11,876 bases of DNA, taken from positions 1 through 11,876 of the forward strand of contig JAIXNB010000015.1 of the NCBI GenBank assembly GCA_020697515.1. Direction: 5' to 3'. The DNA is from Nanobdellota archaeon (GTDB lineage: Archaea; Nanobdellota; Nanobdellia; Nanobdellales; Nanobdellaceae). This document shows, piece after piece, positions 3,478-11,876 of this stretch. The position numbers and the translations under genes were made by a program. Positions within the stretch are counted from its first letter, which is position 1. Each line of letters opens with the position of its first letter. The notes under the pieces are model-generated. The model searched no databases and was not told where the DNA came from. It saw only the letters and a list, made by a program, of their open reading frames with translations.

Positions 3478-4107
3478 TTACTTTTTCTTTGATACAGCTT
3501 CATCTAATATCTCTGCTGGGAGTACAAAATACCGTCCTACTTTCTTCTTCCAGTTTTTCTCTTTCTTTTTTTTCTTAGAGTCATCAGTTAGCCATCTTGT
3601 CAACATTATAAAAACTCCAACTAGTACTAAAAATGTAAATAATCCAGTTTCTATTAAATACTTATATAGACTTTCTAATATTAGTTTAGATATCATACCA
3701 ACTGCTGTTGGGTTCCCCTTGAATGCATACAATGCTGCAATCACTACTGAGAGTCCTAAAACTCCGCTAAATATAGCCTGCCTCTTTTTTCTAGTATCTT
3801 CACCACCTGTTGGATTCCTAGCAAAAATACTGAATGCTATGAGTACCAGTAGTATAGTAAGAATCTCATAAAAAAACATTGCAAAAAACCTTTGAGTAAA
3901 TATTATATTATTTGTACTATATATATAATAAAGACTAAATACAAATGAGATCGCTACCATGATTCTTTCTTGATTTTTAAATATCCCTATTTTGTGTAAA
4001 AGCCCATATATCATTGTAAAAATTACCAAAAATGGCCCTAATAAGGTAGATATCCCATAGTTATTCAGGAGGCTCATAAATAAAGAGAGGTTTAACTCAG
4101 CGGCCAT
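3478..4107 (-). CDS. Paralogous 5-TM membrane protein, copy 3 (unrecognised family), with a long lysine-rich C-terminal tail
   Basis: 209-aa ORF. The N-terminus LLNNYGISTLLGPFLVIFTMIYGLLHKIGIF aligns with the same motif in the two upstream genes. About five hydrophobic spans. Tail: DDSKKKKKEKNWKKKVGRYFVLPAEILDEAVSKKK. Confidence 0.8.
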   Translation of the reverse strand: MAAELNLSLFMSLLNNYGISTLLGPFLVIFTMIYGLLHKIGIFKNQERIMVAISFVFSLYYIYSTNNIIFTQRFFAMFFYEILTILLVLIAFSIFARNPTGGEDTRKKRQAIFSGVLGLSVVIAALYAFKGNPTAVGMISKLILESLYKYLIETGLFTFLVLVGVFIMLTRWLTDDSKKKKKEKNWKKKVGRYFVLPAEILDEAVSKKK

Positions 4108-4126
4108 TTTATTATATTATCTTTAA

Positions 4127-4684
4127 TTAATTACTATTATTGTTTGAGGATGTTTCGCTAGAGGAAAGCCATTTCATTAGCAACCAAAACACCACCACTA
4201 ATACAAGAATAGCTATTATATCTGGAGTTATTATTTTGCCTACAAACTGTGCAAAACCAAATCCCTCTAAATAACTTGCAGAAGTGCTTCCTCTAATCCC
4301 ATAGACTGCCAGGAGTACTATTACTATTATTGTTACAAGCGCTATTATACCACGTGCAGTATCCCCTATTTCTTCTGGTTTTATGAAAAATGCTATAGCA
4401 ATAGCAAATAGGAATAAACCTAGAATCCAAACTGTAGCATGAGGAATTAAGTATACCATCCATTCCATTAATTCCTGATGGGCTAATGCCATAAGTGTAA
4501 ATCCAAAAGCAAATCCAGCATGTAGTTTTCTACCTACACTATCGTCATTATCTATTTTAAATAGATTAGCGGCTTCCAAAAGCAAAAATACTATGGAATA
4601 TATTAAAATAAATGGTAAAATTATATTATAAAACCCATATGTTGATAAAGATGTAGTTGCTATCTCATAAAAGTTATATGTCAT
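4127..4684 (-). CDS. Paralogous 5-TM membrane protein, copy 2 (unrecognised family)
   Basis: 185-aa ORF. N-terminal motif SLSTYGFYNIILPFILIYSIVFLLLEAANLF. About five hydrophobic spans. Polar tail SSSETSSNNNSN. Confidence 0.8.
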   Translation of the reverse strand: MTYNFYEIATTSLSTYGFYNIILPFILIYSIVFLLLEAANLFKIDNDDSVGRKLHAGFAFGFTLMALAHQELMEWMVYLIPHATVWILGLFLFAIAIAFFIKPEEIGDTARGIIALVTIIVIVLLAVYGIRGSTSASYLEGFGFAQFVGKIITPDIIAILVLVVVFWLLMKWLSSSETSSNNNSN

Positions 4685-4689
4685 TTTTG

Positions 4690-5268
4690 TTAATTATTAT
4701 TTTGTTCTTGGGATTTGGGCTCTCTAACCAGCAAATAAGCAATTACTCCGAATGCTGCCAACATTAGTATAGCCCCTATATAATCTCCATATTTACTCCA
4801 GAAGCTCCCAGGAACTCCCGATCCCGAGATTCCCTTTAAGAGACCAAAATAGTTCAATATAACTAATATAAGAAGTATCGTTGCTGGTATTCCCATATAT
4901 TTTTTAAATTTAGCATAGGTATCCGTCTTTATTAGCTCTCCTTCAGGCAATGCAAAGGCTGCTACTACTAATATTATTGAAAATACTATTATTAGAAAAA
5001 TCGCTATTAATGGAACTACTCCTCTTATACTCGTTACAGCGTGATAAGACCCTATTACTATAGATGCTATTGCAAAAGCAATCATGGAGGATATGCTCCT
5101 TGCCATCTTTGCCTCTTTAACGTTATTACTATTGAATGCATCTCCAAAGATCCTTGTATTGAGGAGTATACCATATGTAAGTGCATAAACTAATATCCAA
5201 GGAAGTATTATGTTAAAAAATCCAAATTTATCTAGAAGATTAATCGCCCCTTCATAAATAGCAACCAT
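4690..5268 (-). CDS. Paralogous 5-TM membrane protein, copy 1 (unrecognised family)
   Basis: 192-aa ORF. N-terminal motif LLDKFGFFNIILPWILVYALTYGILLNTRIF. About five hydrophobic spans. Polar tail REPKSQEQNNN. Only 5 nt separate it from copy 2. Confidence 0.8.
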   Translation of the reverse strand: MVAIYEGAINLLDKFGFFNIILPWILVYALTYGILLNTRIFGDAFNSNNVKEAKMARSISSMIAFAIASIVIGSYHAVTSIRGVVPLIAIFLIIVFSIILVVAAFALPEGELIKTDTYAKFKKYMGIPATILLILVILNYFGLLKGISGSGVPGSFWSKYGDYIGAILMLAAFGVIAYLLVREPKSQEQNNN

Positions 5269-5292
5269 TTTATATTGGTATATCTAGCAAAT

Positions 5293-5300
5293 TATATAAA
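5293..5300 (-). promoter_or_regulatory. Candidate internal TATA box in front of the membrane-protein trio
   Basis: Minus-strand TTTATATA, centred ~28 nt upstream of the ATG at 5268. Confidence 0.4.
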
Positions 5301-5316
5301 ATATTATCTTTAATTG

Positions 5317-5526
5317 TTAGCCTTCTAATTCTTCTACGATTATGGCATTTGTTGGGCAAGCTTCCTCTGCTTTCTTTACAAGCATTATAGAATCCTTATC
5401 CTCCACTACTTTCCTCGTTTCTTTTGCTTTTCCATCTTTGTCAAAAATAAAAAGATCTTTAGATATTAAAACGCATGCACCACAAGCTATACATTTTTCT
5501 TTGTCTACATAAAAAAATATTCTCAT
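5317..5526 (-). CDS. Small single-cluster [4Fe-4S]/[3Fe-4S] ferredoxin (Pyrococcus/Thermotoga type)
   Basis: 69 aa: VDKEKCIACGACV...DGKA...ACPTNAI. It has the C-x2-C-x2-C ... C-P ligand pattern, and its length and layout are those of the ~65-aa archaeal monocluster ferredoxins. Confidence 0.85.
   Translation of the reverse strand: MRIFFYVDKEKCIACGACVLISKDLFIFDKDGKAKETRKVVEDKDSIMLVKKAEEACPTNAIIVEELEG
5471..5509. repeat. 39-bp exact direct repeat, copy 1 (within ferredoxin A)
   Basis: acgcatgcaccacaagctatacatttttctttgtctaca is identical to 5685-5723. Flanking bases differ on both sides. Confidence 0.95.
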
Positions 5527-5536
5527 TAAGAGAGAT

Positions 5537-5743
5537 TTATTCCTCTTCTGTAATTATTGCACCTGTTGGGCAGGCATCCTTCGCCTCTTTGACCTTCTGT
5601 ATTAGATCACCATCCGAGATTTTGGTTATTTTGGTCTGTGATTTTCCATCAGACTCAAATTCGAATATTTCTGGAGCTATTGCTACGCATGCACCACAAG
5701 CTATACATTTTTCTTTGTCTACAGAAACTACAATCTTTACCAT
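5537..5743 (-). CDS. Small single-cluster ferredoxin, tandem paralogue
   Basis: 68 aa: VDKEKCIACGACVAIAPEIFEFESDGKS...ACPTGAI. Same ligand pattern. It lies 10 nt upstream of the other copy. Confidence 0.85.
   Translation of the reverse strand: MVKIVVSVDKEKCIACGACVAIAPEIFEFESDGKSQTKITKISDGDLIQKVKEAKDACPTGAIITEEE
5685..5723. repeat. 39-bp exact direct repeat, copy 2 (within ferredoxin B)
   Basis: Identical to 5471-5509. Encodes VDKEKCIACGACV in both genes. Confidence 0.95.
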
Positions 5744-5766
5744 TCTGTATTATATTTCTAACTTAT

Positions 5767-5774
5767 TTTTTATA
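5767..5774 (-). promoter_or_regulatory. Candidate TATA box for the ferredoxin genes
   Basis: Minus-strand TATAAAAA, centred ~27 nt upstream of the ATG at 5743. Confidence 0.45.
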
Positions 5775-5857
5775 GCTTTCCATAAGAAACTTGTATAACG
5801 TTCTCAATTCTAAAATAATGGGTATAGGGGTGTCGTAGTGCCAAAATTAGTATTTAT

Positions 5858-6382
5858 TTATACGGAAGAAGTGTTGTTTTGCTTGGAAAGTACAGCTTTT
5901 ATATTCTTTTTAACATTATTATAAACTTTCCACCATTTACCAATCTCGAGCCAATAATAATAAGGTACCAAATGTATATATTTCCTGTGAACTGTTGCAA
6001 GAACTTTGTAATTTTCCTTTAGTACTTTTCTTACAAGTTGCTTAAATTTTTCTGAATAGAATTCCATTGGCCCTATCTCGTCTATTACAATAATTCTATC
6101 TCTATACAAATCGATCTTATCCAGCATATATGAAGAAAATATATCCAAATTCTCCTTTATTATGAAATACTTTCCAATTCTATAGGGTGTTCTTACATTA
6201 GTGCTTGCGAGTAAAATTTTCTCGCCCCACGTAGCCACTATCTTAAACCCAACCCTCTTTTTGTTCTCTCTAATTTCCTCTGTCCAAAACCCAAAGAAAT
6301 TGTCTATTCCGAACTCTGTTATTACTCTCCTAATAAGGCTTGTTTTACCTGTCCTTGGATTACCTGAAATAAATATTTTCAT
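5858..6382 (-). CDS. Nucleoside-triphosphatase, THEP1 / NTPase_1 family
   Basis: 174 aa: MKIFISGNPRTGKTSLIRRV (P-loop), GFWTEEIRENKKRVGFKIV, IGKYFI, IIVIDEIGPMEFYSEKF (Walker B) and VLATVHRK. Order and spacing match the THEP1 family. The P-loop is slightly deviant (GNPRTGKT). A TATA-like AATATATTTT (6404-6413, minus) lies ~26 nt upstream. Confidence 0.85.
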   Translation of the reverse strand: MKIFISGNPRTGKTSLIRRVITEFGIDNFFGFWTEEIRENKKRVGFKIVATWGEKILLASTNVRTPYRIGKYFIIKENLDIFSSYMLDKIDLYRDRIIVIDEIGPMEFYSEKFKQLVRKVLKENYKVLATVHRKYIHLVPYYYWLEIGKWWKVYNNVKKNIKAVLSKQNNTSSV

Positions 6383-6544
6383 TTTTAGAATTAAGATTTA
6401 GAGAAAATATATTATTTCTATACCAATCTAAATTTTCTGATTATACTCCCTCCATCTACAGTTTCTATGATACGTGGATATGTATTTTTGCTAACTTAGA
6501 GCTGTCCTTTAGTCTCGAAAATATTATTTATTAAAATTTTATCT

Positions 6545-7372
6545 ATGACCATTAAAATTATGGATACTTATGTTAGGGTTACTGATTTTTTAGATTACTT
6601 ATTCTGTCCTCGAAAAATATATTTGAAGAGGGTTTTGGATCTAGAGGAAGAAAGAGGGGAAAAAGCATTATTTGGTACTCTAGTACACTCTGTTTTTGAT
6701 AGATTGAATGAGGTGGAAGAGAGTATAGTTTATGAAATAGACGATGAGTATTCATTCGATTATATCCTAAAGATATATGAAATAACAGCTAATAAAATAA
6801 TAAGCGATGTTTTAAACAACTATTCTAAGGAAATTGATAAATTTTCGCTATCTAAGGAATATCTATTCATAGAGTTGAAGAAACACATCTATGATGATGT
6901 ATATGAGAGAGCCAAGAATGTTTACAACACTATGAAGACCTATCAAGAGTATGGGATCTTTCTGTGGGACAAGTTAGAACCTAAAATAAAATCAGAATTA
7001 GAACTTCTATCAGATACTTTGAAAATCGTTGGGAGGGTTGATAGGATAGAATTCTATAGAGATTACATTATTCCTGTTGAAATAAAGTCAGGGAACTATT
7101 CTAATAGCCATATTTTTCAATTACATGCATATGCACTTTTACTTAAACATAATTTTCCAAGATATATTATTGATAGAGGAATAATATATTATACAAAATC
7201 TAGGAAGAGAAAGGAAGTAAGATTAAATTATAGATGTTTTAAGAGAGTTCTTACTATGAGAGATAGAATACTTAGTATAATAGAAAATGAACAAGATCCG
7301 GGTATGAATAAAAATCTAAATAAATGTGTAAAATGCACATTCTACGAAATTTGTAAAAAATTAAAATTATGA
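6545..7372 (+). CDS. cas4: Cas4-family (DUF83) RecB-like PD-(D/E)xK exonuclease with a 4-Cys Fe-S cluster signature; no cas or CRISPR neighbours
   Basis: 275 aa. N-terminal Cys in FLDYLFCPRKIYLK, GTLVHSVF, IVGRVDRIEF (motif II), IPVEIKSG (motif III), FQLHAYALLL (QxxxY), and C-terminal CVKCTFYEIC (C-x2-C-x5-C). Confidence 0.85.
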   Translation: MTIKIMDTYVRVTDFLDYLFCPRKIYLKRVLDLEEERGEKALFGTLVHSVFDRLNEVEESIVYEIDDEYSFDYILKIYEITANKIISDVLNNYSKEIDKFSLSKEYLFIELKKHIYDDVYERAKNVYNTMKTYQEYGIFLWDKLEPKIKSELELLSDTLKIVGRVDRIEFYRDYIIPVEIKSGNYSNSHIFQLHAYALLLKHNFPRYIIDRGIIYYTKSRKRKEVRLNYRCFKRVLTMRDRILSIIENEQDPGMNKNLNKCVKCTFYEICKKLKL

Positions 7373-7388
7373 AAAACTATAGGGAAAA

Positions 7389-7757
7389 ATGGAGGTTGAA
7401 GGGGTAATAGAAGCTATTAGCTATCGAAATAAAGGAATAAAAGTTAGAGGCAAATGGTACAGTGTTTCTGAAGATGTTTTAAAACAAGTTCAAAAAAATC
7501 ATAAAGTGAAGCTGACTTTGGACGATTTTGGAAATGTAATGGATATTAAAATATTAGGTTATGAAGAAAAGATAGATAAAGATATTAAAATTGAATCTCT
7601 TAGGGCATCAATCGAGATTCTAAAACTAGTCTTTCAATATGGACAACCATATGATATCTCACCGGCCACCCAATCTAATAATTTAGAGGAACAAGTAAGA
7701 CAGTTTACAACTATTCTAGAAAAAACATACAAAAGGATTTTAAATATGTTGAAATGA
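7389..7757 (+). CDS. Hypothetical 122-aa protein (beta-rich N-terminal half, helical C-terminal half), translationally coupled to the NFACT-R gene
   Basis: ORF begins MEVEGVIEAISYRNKGIKVRGKWYSVSEDVLK... No family recognised. Its TGA overlaps the next ATG (ATGA at 7754-7757), and it starts 16 nt after the cas4-like stop. Confidence 0.65.
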   Translation: MEVEGVIEAISYRNKGIKVRGKWYSVSEDVLKQVQKNHKVKLTLDDFGNVMDIKILGYEEKIDKDIKIESLRASIEILKLVFQYGQPYDISPATQSNNLEEQVRQFTTILEKTYKRILNMLK

Positions 7758-8533
7758 TTATCGAATTAGATAAAAGAAAATCCATCTTTGAAAATGCTTC
7801 TATTTATTTTGAAAAGGCTAAAAAGCTAAGAAGTAAGTTAAAAAGATTAGAAATCCAAATAAATGCTACTAAAGAGAAGATTTCCCAAATAGGTAAGGAA
7901 ATTGAAGATGAAAAAAGAAAACTGGAGAAAAAAAGAAAGAAAAAGTGGTATGAGAAATTTAGATGGTTCCATACTTCTAATGGATTTTTGTTAGTTGCAG
8001 GAAAGGACGCAATTACTAACGAAATATTGATAAGAAAATATCTTGATCATACTGATCTTGTTTTTCATGCAGAAATTCATGGATCGCCTTTTGGCGTGCT
8101 AAAAAGGGGAAAAGATGCTAATGAAGTAGATATTACTGAAGCGGCACAATTTGTTGCATCATATTCAAAAGCTTGGAAACAAAAACTGGCATATATAGAG
8201 GTCTATTATATATATCCTGAGCAAGTATCCAAACAGGCGCCAGCTGGGGAGTATCTACCAAAAGGCTCCTTTATGATCTATGGAAAAAAAAATTATGTTA
8301 GAGCTAAACTTGAAATAGCATTAGGAGTTGATCCTAATAAAAATCCAATACCTGGGGTTCCATCTTCAGTATCGAAGAAAACTAGCGAATATGTAGTTAT
8401 AATCCCTGGTAATAAGAAGCCTCTAGAAACTGCAAAAGAAATATCAAGTTTTTTAAAAATACCTGTAGAAGATATACTACCTTTTATCCCAGGGGAAAGC
8501 GAAATAGTTAAAAAAGTTAGTGCGATTAGGTAA
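7754..8533 (+). CDS. Truncated NFACT/RqcH (Rqc2/Tae2/FbpA-family) homologue: distal coiled-coil helix, NFACT-R (DUF814) and C-terminal region only
   Basis: 259 aa. NASIYFEKAKKLRSKLKRLE followed by a K/E coiled coil, then WYEKFRWFHTSNGFLLVAGKDAITNEILIRKYLDHTDLVFHAEIHGSPFGVLK. This is the classic NFACT-R motif (F.W..S.[DN]G..[IL].[VA]G[KR][DN]...N..L......D...HA...G[SA]). There is no NFACT-N or HhH portion. Confidence 0.85.
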   Translation: MIIELDKRKSIFENASIYFEKAKKLRSKLKRLEIQINATKEKISQIGKEIEDEKRKLEKKRKKKWYEKFRWFHTSNGFLLVAGKDAITNEILIRKYLDHTDLVFHAEIHGSPFGVLKRGKDANEVDITEAAQFVASYSKAWKQKLAYIEVYYIYPEQVSKQAPAGEYLPKGSFMIYGKKNYVRAKLEIALGVDPNKNPIPGVPSSVSKKTSEYVVIIPGNKKPLETAKEISSFLKIPVEDILPFIPGESEIVKKVSAIR

Positions 8534-8612: not shown

Positions 8613-10196
8613 ATGAAGGCCAAATATCTCCTACCTGTATTAGCTCTTTTACTAATACCTACAGTATTTGCACAAAGCGTAGATATAGAGTTTGTAGAGT
8701 ATCCTAACTATGTCACACCAGAAACTTTACAGCAAACAACATTGTCATTAAAATTAATAGCCAATGTGAACACTGACGATCACCAAATAATAGATAATGG
8801 ATATGATATAGCAGATCCAACATTGTATGTGTATGTATTAGGAGAGGATGGTAGAATATTGTATGAAGAGAACTTATATGTGGGATTAGCGGAGGGAGTG
8901 AATACAATTGATGTGTATATTCCAGGAAGCATTATTGCAGAGAAACTGTCTCAGAAAGATGGGTCTATAAGGGTGATAGCCAATATGACAGTTGTATTTA
9001 CTAATGGTACTAATGTGATTACAAGATATGACGATACATCTATCACTATATATATAAAGGATAATATTAAATCAGGAGAGCTGGATATAATATATCTAGC
9101 ACCAAATTTAACTAAGCAAAAAGAATTTGATAGGAGGGTGTATACATTCCTAGTAGGTATAAAGAACGATGGTTCTAGGAAGGCAAACAATGTTGCAGTG
9201 TATTTGAGAGTATACGACCAATATGGGGTGAGAAAAATAAATCTAGTAAACTATATGTCCATCGGCGCGCAGAAATATGTTGAAGCAAGATTCGATGTAA
9301 ACTTTGGTATATTGGAGCCAGGACATTATAAATTAGCCATAGAGGTATATAAAGAGGGATTAAAAGTATTTGAAAAAGAATATCCAATAATAATAGCTCC
9401 CCTACAAATTAATGCTATAAAAGTATATGACGTTTCAATATTACCACCAGAATACGAACCAGGGGACTTAGTTCTTATAAAAATGACATTAAGAAATGTC
9501 TTAGATAAGCCAATAGTAGTCAAGCCAGAGCTGGTTTCTGAAGATCTAAATCTGTATAGATCTTTAAGCAGCTTTGAGTTCGCTCCAGGAGAGGCAAAAG
9601 AGTTTAAGGTAGTAGTGCCATTACCGGAAGATCTAAAACCTGGAAGATATCATGTAACATTAAGATTCATGTATAATCAGTATGTAAAGCAGGATTACAA
9701 AGTTGTATTAAGAATTCCAGGAGGGATGGGTGACATAGAACAAGAGTTAGTTACTGCTGAGTTATTAGCACCCTCGGAGATAATAGTAGGAGAGAATAAA
9801 ACTGCAAAATTAATACTAACATCACACGTAGAGGATATAATACCGGTTAAAATAGAGGCATACGCTACTAAGGTAGATATAAAATTATCGAAGGATCAAT
9901 TAATTGTTGGTGGAATTGGATTGAAAAAGAAAATAACATTAGATATAATAGGAAAACAGACAGGAAAAGATAATATAACAGTGGAAGTAATAGATTTGAA
10001 CACAGGTAAGGTTCTTGCTAAGATAGAACAACCAATAGATATACTACCCCCATCTCCTAACGAGACAAAAACAATTACAAGAACAATATTAGGTAAGGAT
10101 AAATTGATAATATTGATTGGAGGAATAATTATATTGGCAGCAATAGCATTATTCCTTATGAAAAGAAAGGAAGAAGAGGAAAAACCCTCTGAGTAG
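8613..10196 (+). CDS. Secreted, C-terminally membrane-anchored cell-surface protein with CARDB/Ig-like repeats (S-layer or adhesin candidate)
   Basis: 527 aa. Signal peptide MKAKYLLPVLALLLIPTVFAQS. CARDB-like stretch FLVGIKNDGSRKANNVAVYLRVYDQYG and further beta-rich ~100-aa modules. Several N-x-S/T sequons (NMT, NGT, NLT, NKT, NIT, NET). C-terminal TM LIILIGGIIILAAIALFLM followed by KRKEEEEKPSE. Confidence 0.8.
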   Translation: MKAKYLLPVLALLLIPTVFAQSVDIEFVEYPNYVTPETLQQTTLSLKLIANVNTDDHQIIDNGYDIADPTLYVYVLGEDGRILYEENLYVGLAEGVNTIDVYIPGSIIAEKLSQKDGSIRVIANMTVVFTNGTNVITRYDDTSITIYIKDNIKSGELDIIYLAPNLTKQKEFDRRVYTFLVGIKNDGSRKANNVAVYLRVYDQYGVRKINLVNYMSIGAQKYVEARFDVNFGILEPGHYKLAIEVYKEGLKVFEKEYPIIIAPLQINAIKVYDVSILPPEYEPGDLVLIKMTLRNVLDKPIVVKPELVSEDLNLYRSLSSFEFAPGEAKEFKVVVPLPEDLKPGRYHVTLRFMYNQYVKQDYKVVLRIPGGMGDIEQELVTAELLAPSEIIVGENKTAKLILTSHVEDIIPVKIEAYATKVDIKLSKDQLIVGGIGLKKKITLDIIGKQTGKDNITVEVIDLNTGKVLAKIEQPIDILPPSPNETKTITRTILGKDKLIILIGGIIILAAIALFLMKRKEEEEKPSE

Positions 10197-10218: not shown

Positions 10219-10309
10219 ACCATTAATTTATTATTTTTTAAATAATATCTAGAAATTCTCGACTTGTCACAATTTTTAGCAATTTTATCTCATAACCATT
10301 AACCGTATT

Positions 10310-10408
10310 GGGCCCGCGGGGATTCGAACCCCGGACCTCCGGCTTTCTTAGATGTACGAGCGCCAAGTCTTATAAGGCCGGCGCTCTCACCGCTGAGCTA
10401 CGGGCCCT
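10310..10408 (-). tRNA. tRNA-Ile, anticodon UAU, with a 26-nt intron at the canonical 37/38 position; CCA not encoded
   Basis: Minus-strand manual fold: GGGCCCG-TA-GCTC-AGCGGTGA-GAGC-G-CCGGC-CTTATA[intron]A-GCCGG-AGGTC-CGGGG-TTCGAAT-CCCCG-CGGGCCC-A. All stems are fully Watson-Crick, the T-loop is TTCGAAT and the discriminator is A73. The anticodon TAT is at 10375-10373. Confidence 0.85.
10346..10371 (-). other. tRNA intron (26 nt) with a bulge-helix-bulge-like context
   Basis: Positions 32-35 (CTTA) pair with the intron's TAAG to give a 4-bp central helix. It is flanked by 3-nt bulges: TA|A on the 5' side and AA|A on the 3' side. The outer helix is weak (about 2 bp). Confidence 0.7.
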
Positions 10409-10705: not shown

Positions 10706-11876
10706 ATGGATGAACAACTAGTAAAAAAGTTACAGGAGCTATATTCAATAGTTAAAGATGAAATCTCTGAGTCTCTTAAAAAAGGTAGCTGTACTATCAT
10801 TATATCCCATAAAGCAATCGCTGCCGTAGATATAAAGCTCGCAGAGGAAGTATTAAATAACCCTAAAAATACCTTAAAGGTTCTGGAAAAATTCTTTAGC
10901 CAAAAACTCGGGATTAATGTAAAAGTTAGAATAAAAGATCTACCCAAGGATCGTTGGATAAGAATTAGAGATATCCGTTCAGAGCATATAGGAAAATTAA
11001 TCGAAACTGAAGGGATAATAAAGGTATCTACTGAAGTAAGACCTGTTGTAGTGGCTGTTAAGTACTACCATAATAAATGTGGGGGAGAATTCTGGTATAA
11101 CCTGTTTGGAGAAGATAGTGACAAAGAACAGTTTATTAGATTCAAAATAGAAAAACCTAAAGTTTGTTCCGTGTGTGGTGAATCCGAAGGTAGATTCGTA
11201 GAAGTAGAAAGAAAAACTGTAGATATGCAAAGACTTTTGGTTGAGGAGACTCCTGATCAAATTGAAAGAGGGGAGCAACCCGCACAAATTATTGTGTTTC
11301 TTACAGAAGATTTGTGCGAACCTCGTATGGAAAGAAGGACAATCCCTGGTACTAGAATAAGGATTGTAGGAGTTGTAGAGGCTCTTCAAAATTCAAAGAC
11401 ACAGGCTGTGTTAGATTTAATAATAAATGCGGTATATATAGAACCTGTGGAAAAAGATATAGAGGATATCAAAATTTCAGAGGAGGATGAGCTGAAAATT
11501 AAAGAGTTAGCAAAATCAGGAGATGTTCTCAACATTCTAGCTAGATCTATCGCCCCTAGCATACATGGAAAGCATTATGAGCATATAAAAAAAGCATTAA
11601 TATTACAATTGGTAGGCGGCGTAAAGAAAATACGATCCGATGGTACAAGGGTAAGGGGAGATATACATATGCTTCTTATAGGAGATCCGGGAACTGGAAA
11701 GAGTATAACACCAGATTCTAAAATAGTCATTATTGATGAAAGTAGAAAAATAAATGTTGTACCAATAGGAGAGTTTGTAGATCAATTAATTGAAGATAAT
11801 ACGAATAAAGTAATATTATATGGTGATACAGAGATTTTAAATTTGTTAGATATTAATAGAATTTTTTATACTATAT
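10706..11876 (+). CDS. mcm: MCM replicative helicase, N-terminal ~390 codons (partial; runs off window end), interrupted by an intein after the Walker A lysine
   Basis: Manual translation from ATG 10706, with an in-frame TAA at 10691: MDEQLVKKLQELYS...WIRIRDIRSEHIGKLIETEGIIKV...HNKCGGEF...CSVCGESEG (Zn motif)...MQRLLVEETPDQIERGEQP...ILARSIAPSIHGKHYEHIKKALILQLVGGVKKIRSDGTRVRGDIHMLLIGDPGTGK. No stop codon to the window end. This gene is absent from the supplied ORF track. Confidence 0.9.
   Translation, partial: MDEQLVKKLQELYSIVKDEISESLKKGSCTIIISHKAIAAVDIKLAEEVLNNPKNTLKVLEKFFSQKLGINVKVRIKDLPKDRWIRIRDIRSEHIGKLIETEGIIKVSTEVRPVVVAVKYYHNKCGGEFWYNLFGEDSDKEQFIRFKIEKPKVCSVCGESEGRFVEVERKTVDMQRLLVEETPDQIERGEQPAQIIVFLTEDLCEPRMERRTIPGTRIRIVGVVEALQNSKTQAVLDLIINAVYIEPVEKDIEDIKISEEDELKIKELAKSGDVLNILARSIAPSIHGKHYEHIKKALILQLVGGVKKIRSDGTRVRGDIHMLLIGDPGTGKSITPDSKIVIIDESRKINVVPIGEFVDQLIEDNTNKVILYGDTEILNLLDINRIFYTI
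11702..11876 (+). mobile_element. N-terminal part of an intein inserted in the MCM P-loop (Ser-1 intein), truncated by the window end
   Basis: After GDPGTGK the expected SQLL continuation is replaced by SITPDSKIVIIDESRKINVVPIGEFVDQLIEDN... This fits intein block A ([CS]-[ILV]-x-x-[DG]-[ST]-x-[ILV]) followed by a typical 'x-I-x-E-[LF]-V' strand. The Walker A loop of MCM is a known intein insertion site. Confidence 0.7.

Follow-up and report, generated by a model that had tools for sequence, protein, structure and literature searches.

A short NFACT gene of a Nanobdellota archaeon is very probably the C-terminal half of an RqcH encoded by two unlinked genes

What does an RqcH/NFACT gene do when it lacks the N-terminal half of the protein? 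The question is raised by an 11,876-bp stretch of DNA from a Nanobdellota archaeon (contig JAIXNB010000015.1; G+C 32%), hereafter the window, in which two open reading frames (ORFs) follow one another on the same strand, one of 122 amino acids (aa; 7389..7757, +) and one of 259 aa (7754..8533, +). A preliminary description had reported this pair, with these coordinates and sizes and an ATGA overlap between them, and had placed a NASIYFEKAKK segment at aa 14-24 of the 259-aa product; reading the sequence gave the same on every count. It offered three readings of the short gene: a split gene whose N-terminal half lies elsewhere, a partnership in which the 122-aa protein supplies a new module, or a solitary NFACT-R protein resembling CCDC25/Jlp2. 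We find that the 259-aa ORF is very probably the C-terminal half (C-half) of RqcH/NFACT, a protein for which Nanoarchaeota (Nanobdellota) have two unlinked genes.

The domain content of the C-half is that of the C-terminal part of RqcH. Pfam PF05670 (NFACT-R_1) matches aa 68-177 over the full model (1-112/112) with an E-value of 2.5e-35 and 121.8 bits (cut-off 29.8). The archaeal RqcH family of NCBIfam, NF041120 (RqcH_arch; 645 positions), is covered from 381 to 643 at 311.5 bits, below its 400-bit equivalog cut-off. These matches bear out the strong NFACT-R motif and the C-terminal region that had been recognized from the sequence. The N-terminal NFACT-N/HhH half is missing, as had also been noted: against Pfam NFACT_N (PF05833; 456 positions), aa 2-46 match model positions 370-414 only, at 26.7 bits, under the cut-off of 31. 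There was no direct match to Pfam NFACT-C in the 259-aa product. The closest solved structure by sequence (phmmer) is human NEMF, aa 460-645, with an E-value of 1e-31. An AlphaFold2 (AF2) model of the C-half, with a predicted local distance difference test score (pLDDT) of 90, has an unstructured stretch (aa 1-10), a 51-residue helix (aa 11-61), NFACT-R and a folded domain (aa 180-256); in Foldseek it matched NEMF (E 1.4e-14, an alignment of 320 columns with a template modelling score of 0.63 normalised to the query), Rqc2, RqcH, a C-terminal fragment of FbpA, and CCDC25. The features of the ORF, with the evidence in brackets, are:

7754..8533, +: very probably the C-half of a split archaeal NFACT/RqcH, 259 aa (Pfam, NF041120, PDB, Foldseek, homologue lengths)
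7754..7783, +: aa 1-10 (MIIELDKRKS), last beta-strand of the M domain at the coiled-coil tip, with the gene break just upstream (alignments)
7784..7936, +: aa 11-61, distal coiled-coil helix CC2 (single AF2 helix; Pfam NFACT_N 370-414)
7955..8284, +: aa 68-177, NFACT-R, with D101 and H105 in DLVFH, the H105 codon at 8066-8068 (PF05670)
8291..8530, +: aa 180-259, C-terminal domain, counterpart of archaeal/eukaryotic NFACT-C (NF041120 to 643/645; beta/alpha fold with pLDDT >90; Foldseek)

The C-half lacks a full CC-M hairpin, its share being a single long helix (aa 11-61) and a terminal strand; the remaining helix and most of the M domain sit in stand-alone N-half proteins, described below. D101 and H105 are invariant in both of our C-half alignments (A1, with the short homologues; A2, with Bathyarchaeia), and H105 pairs with H41 of CCDC25 in a profile alignment (hhalign, DLVFH(105)AE against DIWFH(41)VD, the CCDC25 sequence having been checked against 7eof). 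As part of RqcH, the C-half would be expected to dock on large subunits and to have a role in C-terminal tailing.

The short form is a conserved family with a conserved break point. Among 5.8 billion protein clusters, 1111 relatives of the C-half were found at E <= 1e-3, and the statements that follow concern the best 120 of them. These are 42-100% identical to the C-half and come from Nanopusillaceae, Nanobdella aerobiophila, strain YN1 and Woesearchaeota; 119 are 237-276 aa long, and the sole exception in length is a contig-truncated RqcH of Bathyarchaeia. All 14 short homologues that we aligned start in the same column, with M-x-I-x-[LI]-[DN], and the Bathyarchaeia sequence extends further upstream. 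Set against Bathyarchaeia proteins that contain both halves (591-618 aa), residue 1 of the C-half falls on the last strand of the M domain, right after which come the N-A-x-x-Y-[YF] segment and the returning coiled-coil helix; aa 1-10 align with 'LxFxLNLRxS' in unsplit Bathyarchaeia proteins, with 'LTLNINQS' in an unsplit Woesearchaeote protein (locus L204, below) and with 'LVDVDLSLS' in NEMF. The same arrangement is present in the complete genomes AP019769.1 (Nanobdella) and AP031373.1 (YN1).

No N-terminal half (N-half) lies near the C-half. A six-frame hmmsearch with two N-half hidden Markov models (HMMs; E <= 10) gave no NFACT-N or HhH signal in the window, the 122-aa ORF included, and a six-frame HMM search found no N-half gene within 10 kb of the C-half in nine loci for which DNA was available. 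One further C-half locus, from JGI, is without an N-half as judged by Pfam annotation only. Eleven C-half loci (Nanobdella, YN1, Nanopusillaceae, Woesearchaeota, JGI) lack an NFACT_N gene within 4-10 kb, which fits unlinked halves.

Stand-alone N-halves are nevertheless present in the phylum. We scanned metagenomes with a degenerate DNA pattern for the NFACT-N motif E-x-[FY]-x-x-G-N-[IV]-[IV]-L, written in A+T-rich codons, and found by means of an HMM built from Bathyarchaeia proteins that 51 of 120 loci encode NFACT-N. Full-length ORFs of ~600-730 codons account for about 30 of the 51 and serve as a positive control. Eight metagenome ORFs measure only 353-387 codons from stop to stop, one of them being truncated 5' where its contig ends. 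Their C-terminal '...K-x-[IV]-x-[IV]-x-L' is the strand just ahead of the first strand of the C-half, and there is no C-half in the locus of any of the eight. A scan of GTDB, with one genome per species and six N-half seeds, yielded 285 pattern matches, 269 of them confirmed relatives. The results given here rest on the best 80 of the 269, those nearest the Woesearchaeota-type seed; Nanobdella and N. equitans are not among them. In 78 of the 80 genomes, a stand-alone N-half ORF covers the whole N-half model and has no C-half within 6 kb; of the other two, one has an ORF that runs off the contig and one (L204) is unsplit. Most of the 80 are labelled Woesearchaeota, Pacearchaeota or Nanoarchaeota ('Nanobdellota'), some only 'archaeon'; about 24 are labelled 'uncultured Methanosarcinales' and one 'Buchananbacteria', which we take to be mislabels.

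The two kinds of gene are exactly complementary. The stand-alone N-half at locus L080 matches positions 1-377 of NF041120 with 265.1 bits, the complement of the 381-643 matched by the C-half, and the summed score of the two exceeds the 400-bit cut-off. On Pfam NFACT_N, N-halves cover 3-365 and 3-354 and the C-half begins at 370; stand-alone N-halves stop one beta-strand ahead of the C-half start. The unsplit Woesearchaeote gene at L204, of 626 codons, shows how the parts join: both abut at '...TFTMAL-KGSN-LTLNI...'. This gene (5908-7785 of the locus; JAGVYC010000023.1, Woesearchaeota RIFCSPLOWO2_01_FULL_Archaea_34_35) is the sole unsplit RqcH among the best 80 genomes; its M domain is shorter, and it could be an ancestral remnant or a re-fusion. 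At the break point, '...NHVTMLLRNPYLL' and 'LLVDVDLSLS...' of human NEMF are separated by ~40 inserted residues that are charged and of low complexity (in one alignment, a weak profile match); the break thus lies in a loop where an interruption is tolerated.

In the flanks of the N-half genes in loci L128-L207, neighbours were identified by eye from the sequence. A putative P-loop kinase gene of ~168 aa lies directly upstream in 19 loci, a class I aminoacyl-tRNA-synthetase-like gene lies downstream in 19, and an S-adenosylmethionine (SAM)-methyltransferase-like gene of ~298 aa lies directly downstream in 13. The AMMECR1/Mut7-C neighbourhood reported for archaeal NFACT was found neither around the C-half of the window nor around N-half genes.

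The break falls in the hairpin turn of the small M domain, which forms the outer end of the antiparallel coiled coil. On the N-half, of ~350-380 aa, are NFACT-N and HhH, the outgoing coiled-coil helix (CC1) and the greater part of the M domain; the C-half has the final strand of the M domain, CC2 as the returning helix, NFACT-R and NFACT-C. The organism of the window would be expected to encode an N-half too, and the two polypeptides would most likely reassemble non-covalently, through a heterodimeric antiparallel coiled coil of CC1 and CC2 and the pairing of two M-domain strands. On large subunits from which the peptidyl-tRNA has not been cleared, such a heterodimer would act like an ordinary RqcH/NEMF. 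It would be anchored to the subunit by NFACT-R and by the tip of the coiled coil, and its NFACT-N/HhH would engage tRNA so that C-terminal tails are added without a template. In the B. subtilis RqcH-50S complex, the only contacts are those of NFACT-R with the A-site finger and of the distal CC-M with the uL11 stalk base; NFACT-N/HhH is mobile and dispensable for 50S binding, the coiled-coil helices can scissor apart, and a 'DWH' motif in NFACT-R is needed for 50S binding (10.1101/2020.09.03.281279). A break at the tip would leave both modules intact, since 50S contacts are limited to NFACT-R and the distal CC-M.

The fission itself is probably already on record for Nanoarchaeota, under an old name. 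Podar 2013 (PMC3655853, Table 1) lists a 'Predicted RNA-binding protein' that is split as NEQ438-506 in N. equitans and as Nst176-251 in Nst1, at the same site. The old name of COG1293, which is attached to fibronectin-binding protein A, starts with the same words (PMC9670130), and RqcH is COG1293 (10.1101/2020.09.03.281279). From the COG name, not from sequence, we infer that the split protein of Podar 2013 is NFACT/RqcH. In the literature we found no direct statement on NEQ438/NEQ506 or on NFACT together with Nanoarchaeum, and no paper in which the split is called one of RqcH/NFACT or is noted outside Nanoarchaeales. What our analysis adds is modest: an old split gene is assigned to ribosome-associated quality control (RQC), its breadth across the phylum is given with one fused exception, the break is placed at the CC-M tip, and a lineage-restricted gene for an OB-like protein, the 122-aa ORF, is found coupled to the C-half. 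Beyond N. equitans and Nst1, the fission is wide in Woesearchaeota, Pacearchaeota and Nanoarchaeota metagenome-assembled genomes (MAGs), with at least one unsplit exception; this wide occurrence suggests that it is old and stably maintained. A 'truncated' RqcH in such genomes should hence be annotated as half of a two-gene protein, rather than as a minimal or degenerate factor. A heterodimeric RqcH would also be handy for the study of the little-studied archaeal RQC, its tRNA-handling and ribosome-anchoring modules being separately expressible and purifiable.

The first of the three readings, a split gene with its N-half elsewhere, is thus the one that the evidence favours, on the strength of the complementary N-halves in the phylum, the conserved break and the published split in N. 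equitans and Nst1. Several points weigh against it. No N-half was found for the organism of the window, of which 11.9 kb were at hand, or in any hyperthermophilic Nanoarchaeales genome. No assembly returned both halves in our scans, and no contig is common to the C-half and N-half matches; the source for the occurrence of the two halves in a single genome is Podar 2013 (PMC3655853), and several COGs carry names similar to that of COG1293. The GTDB pattern was derived from split N-halves, so 78 of 80 is not an unbiased frequency. Lastly, a split does not account for the overlap with the OB-like gene that is conserved in two lineages.

An unlikely elaboration of the split is that fission has produced two separable factors. 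The C-half would dock alone on obstructed large subunits and release or hold the nascent chain through H105, in this lineage together with the overlapping and probably co-translated 122-aa protein, and the N-half would join only for tailing. If true, this would amount to a natural dissection of NFACT function and a prokaryotic counterpart of the Jlp2 release pathway.

It is improbable that the C-half is an autonomous minimal factor, which would bind the large subunit alone, whether or not the cell has an N-half, and perhaps carry out a Jlp2-like release of peptidyl-tRNA via the NFACT-R histidine instead of tailing. NFACT-R and the distal CC-M are indeed the only 50S contacts of RqcH, with NFACT-N/HhH dispensable for binding, and unlinked halves could be expressed independently; moreover, the invariant H105 aligns with CCDC25 H41, equivalent to Jlp2 H44, a residue essential for peptide release. 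This histidine, however, is shared by unsplit archaeal NFACT, NEMF and RqcH, in which it forms part of the 'DWH' motif needed for 50S binding; being common to unsplit NFACTs, it marks no special function in the split form. Complementary N-halves are kept under selection across the phylum, and the C-half retains half a coiled coil, which would be unpaired if the protein acted alone.

Upstream of the C-half lie the 122-aa ORF and, before it, a Cas4-like gene:

6545..7372, +: Cas4-like PD-(D/E)XK nuclease gene (Pfam Cas_Cas4 and PDDEXK_1; TIGR00372 cas4 at 100 bits, cut-off 65)
7389..7757, +: 122-aa ORF, function unassigned, with a predicted OB-like five-strand barrel (aa 2-58) and a two-helix hairpin (aa 64-121) (AF2, homologues)
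7754..7757, +: ATGA overlap of the stop codon of the 122-aa ORF with the start codon of the 259-aa ORF (direct sequence reading)

The overlap suggests that the 122-aa ORF and the C-half may be translationally coupled; it is an identical 4 nt in loci L208-L210 and 16 nt in L211. Conservative substitutions in 12 close homologues (57-89% identity) indicate that the 122-aa ORF is a real gene. Its product is fast-evolving. It has no match in Pfam, NCBIfam or PHROGs, and a profile search of 1.84 billion representatives gave nine relatives only at E <= 1e-3. In an AF2 model (pLDDT 84), aa 2-58 form an OB-like barrel of five strands, the third and fourth of which are joined by a short helix, and two long helices follow; Foldseek returned nothing significant, the best hit having E 0.01 and the hits being assorted OB-fold proteins. 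We considered whether the protein might be a diverged NFACT-N/HhH and rejected this, there being no HMM signal and the predicted fold being an OB-like barrel, not that of NFACT-N. The preliminary description had likewise judged the ORF unlike NFACT-N or HhH.

The slot after the Cas4-like gene, overlapping the start of the C-half, is occupied in the same way in L208-L210, where the small protein is 66% identical to that of the window, and in L211-L213, where the small protein is 39% and the C-half 54% identical and the surrounding genes differ. The 122-aa gene is missing from Nanobdella, YN1 and a Nanopusillaceae MAG, where the C-half follows the Cas4-like gene in direct overlap; nor do the four Woesearchaeota-type C-half loci that we inspected contain it. 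Three remoter relatives are not adjacent to NFACT genes. Remote relatives (110-122 aa; L217 4785-5153, L214, L215/L216) lie on short contigs among small unannotated ORFs, one of them beside a resolvase gene, and the family may also travel on mobile elements. The 122-aa protein is very probably no substitute for NFACT-N and may at most be an accessory factor; its gene is a lineage-restricted insertion that separates the C-half from the Cas4-like gene.

A new partnership has little probability; in it, the 122-aa protein would serve the C-half as a dedicated subunit, perhaps a cofactor that binds tRNA or rRNA in the manner of RqcP or eIF5A, and would add to the N-half or replace it. The part of the earlier proposal that stands is the coupling, since the stop-start overlap is kept in two divergent lineages, and an OB-like fold would fit nucleic-acid binding. 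The part that finds little support is a module in place of the missing half: the protein has no similarity to NFACT-N or HhH, and its gene is missing in three Nanoarchaeales that otherwise keep the order of Cas4-like gene and C-half, as well as in Woesearchaeota-type loci. Remoter family members occur away from NFACT genes, one near a resolvase, and adjacency is weak evidence, overlaps being common in compact genomes and the block being syntenic. Finally, that the ORF is a decaying fragment, or an assembly or frameshift artefact of a full-length gene, is suggested by its short length only and is almost certainly wrong: the short architecture recurs with an identical start in many independent assemblies, complete genomes among them, at the identities given above for the best 120 homologues, the AF2 model is confident, and the upstream frame holds an unrelated conserved protein and the Cas4-like gene, so that neither the decaying duplicate nor the upstream frameshift or assembly error considered in the preliminary description was found.

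The Cas4-like gene lies directly upstream of the C-half or of the small ORF, and overlaps one of them, in all Nanoarchaeales sampled (window 6545-7372 (+), L001 9201-10013, L218 3190-4017, L219 3190-4017, L211 4213-5025). Neither a CRISPR array nor a further cas gene was noted among the genes annotated in the window and these loci, in which no repeat search was made, and the adjacency may be mere conserved synteny in compact genomes. Downstream of the C-half, the window encodes a secreted or anchored protein of 527 aa (8613-10196); relatives have a protein of 632-659 aa at this place. Three consecutive genes for multi-pass membrane proteins of 185-209 aa without a Pfam match (3478-5268, -) are conserved in Nanobdella, YN1 and the Nanopusillaceae MAG, beside two or three small ferredoxin genes. 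At 10309-10407 (-) there is a tRNA (Rfam, 66.8 bits) with anticodon UAU (Ile) and a 27-nt insertion just after the anticodon loop, which ARAGORN missed in bacterial mode; an intron-containing tRNA-Ile fits the cis-spliced tRNAs of Nanoarchaeota listed in Podar 2013 (PMC3655853). The window ends in partial genes for an Rrp4-like exosome subunit (1-396, -) and an MCM helicase (10706-11875, +).

Other NFACT variants came to light in the searches. Among 15 aligned Bathyarchaeia RqcH proteins (P0145, P0146 and P0152 in the set), 13 start at or near M-A-L-R-K-H-L and are without the first ~75 NFACT-N residues present in P0215, their match to NF041120 beginning at 74; the explanation is a distinct second fission or truncation or else start codons that were systematically miscalled. 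A homologue search seeded with a partial Bathyarchaeia RqcH, of which we consider the best 120 matches, reached no nanoarchaeal N-halves within these but contained further discrete length classes of C-terminal RqcH on long contigs (P0138/P0144, ~322 aa; P0234/P0245, ~278 aa; P0242, 422 aa, on a 487-kb contig), which hints at additional independent break points in other archaea. At L047 (6148-8236, -; MDTB01144032.1, 20% G+C), an NFACT N-part (314 codons) and C-part (386 codons) are adjacent, overlapping ORFs in different frames; on this eukaryote-like A+T-rich contig, a frameshift, intron or sequencing error is the likely cause, not a split of the nanoarchaeal type. A scan of IMG/VR with the C-half alignment gave one locus only, L007, on a giant-virus-like contig that has its own full-length NFACT of 495 aa, and we set it aside as not relevant; there the NFACT gene (5251-6738; IMGVR_UViG_3300024302_000833, a 90-kb contig) adjoins a PIF1-like helicase gene, and the contig is probably of giant-virus or eukaryotic origin.

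Among known systems, the closest are NEQ438/NEQ506 of N. equitans and Nst176/Nst251 of Nst1, which come from the same phylum as the window and consist of two unlinked genes with a conserved break; their identity with the gene of the window we consider likely. Waters, in 2003, is reportedly a further source for the N. equitans split, named alongside Podar. The gene order of the window matches those of Nanobdella and YN1 (Nanoarchaeales). Unlike the published cases, the split described here extends to Woesearchaeota and Pacearchaeota MAGs, and the lineage of the window has the additional 122-aa gene upstream. Compared with archaeal RqcH (NF041120; ~595-685 aa in Bathyarchaeia proteins and metagenome ORFs), the C-half is 45-50% identical to the C-terminal 260 residues of the Bathyarchaeia proteins and shares the order CC2, NFACT-R, NFACT-C and the invariant residues W65, D85, N89, D101 and H105, among others, but its polypeptide is without NFACT-N, HhH, CC1 and most of the M domain. 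NEMF and Rqc2 have the archaeal-eukaryotic C-terminal domain in common with the C-half, and NEMF has its long disordered insertion exactly at the gene break; NEMF, however, is a single chain of ~1000 residues that works with Listerin, a protein not known from archaea.

CCDC25 and Jlp2 resemble the C-half in being short, NFACT-R-centred proteins with the same histidine (H41, H44 and H105, respectively). In CCDC25, though, NFACT-R is N-terminal and a coiled coil follows, whereas in the C-half a helix precedes NFACT-R and an NFACT-C-like domain follows it. CCDC25 was not listed by phmmer at E <= 0.01, BLASTP found nothing, and the profile alignment alone was informative; in Foldseek, CCDC25 matched the C-half at E 2.8e-5, against 1.4e-14 for NEMF. 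The suggestion of a CCDC25/Jlp2-like solo NFACT-R protein thus does not hold, either for the domain architecture or for the nearest relatives. CCDC25 goes back to a partial duplication that left an intact NFACT next to it, rather than to a fission of the gene. In Nanoarchaeota, further split genes (reverse gyrase, GatE, alanyl-tRNA synthetase, DNA polymerase B) share with split RqcH a site of reconstitution in trans, unlinked halves and a setting of genome reduction; they differ in that no intein or known joining device is evident in split RqcH, for which the proposed interface is an antiparallel coiled coil.

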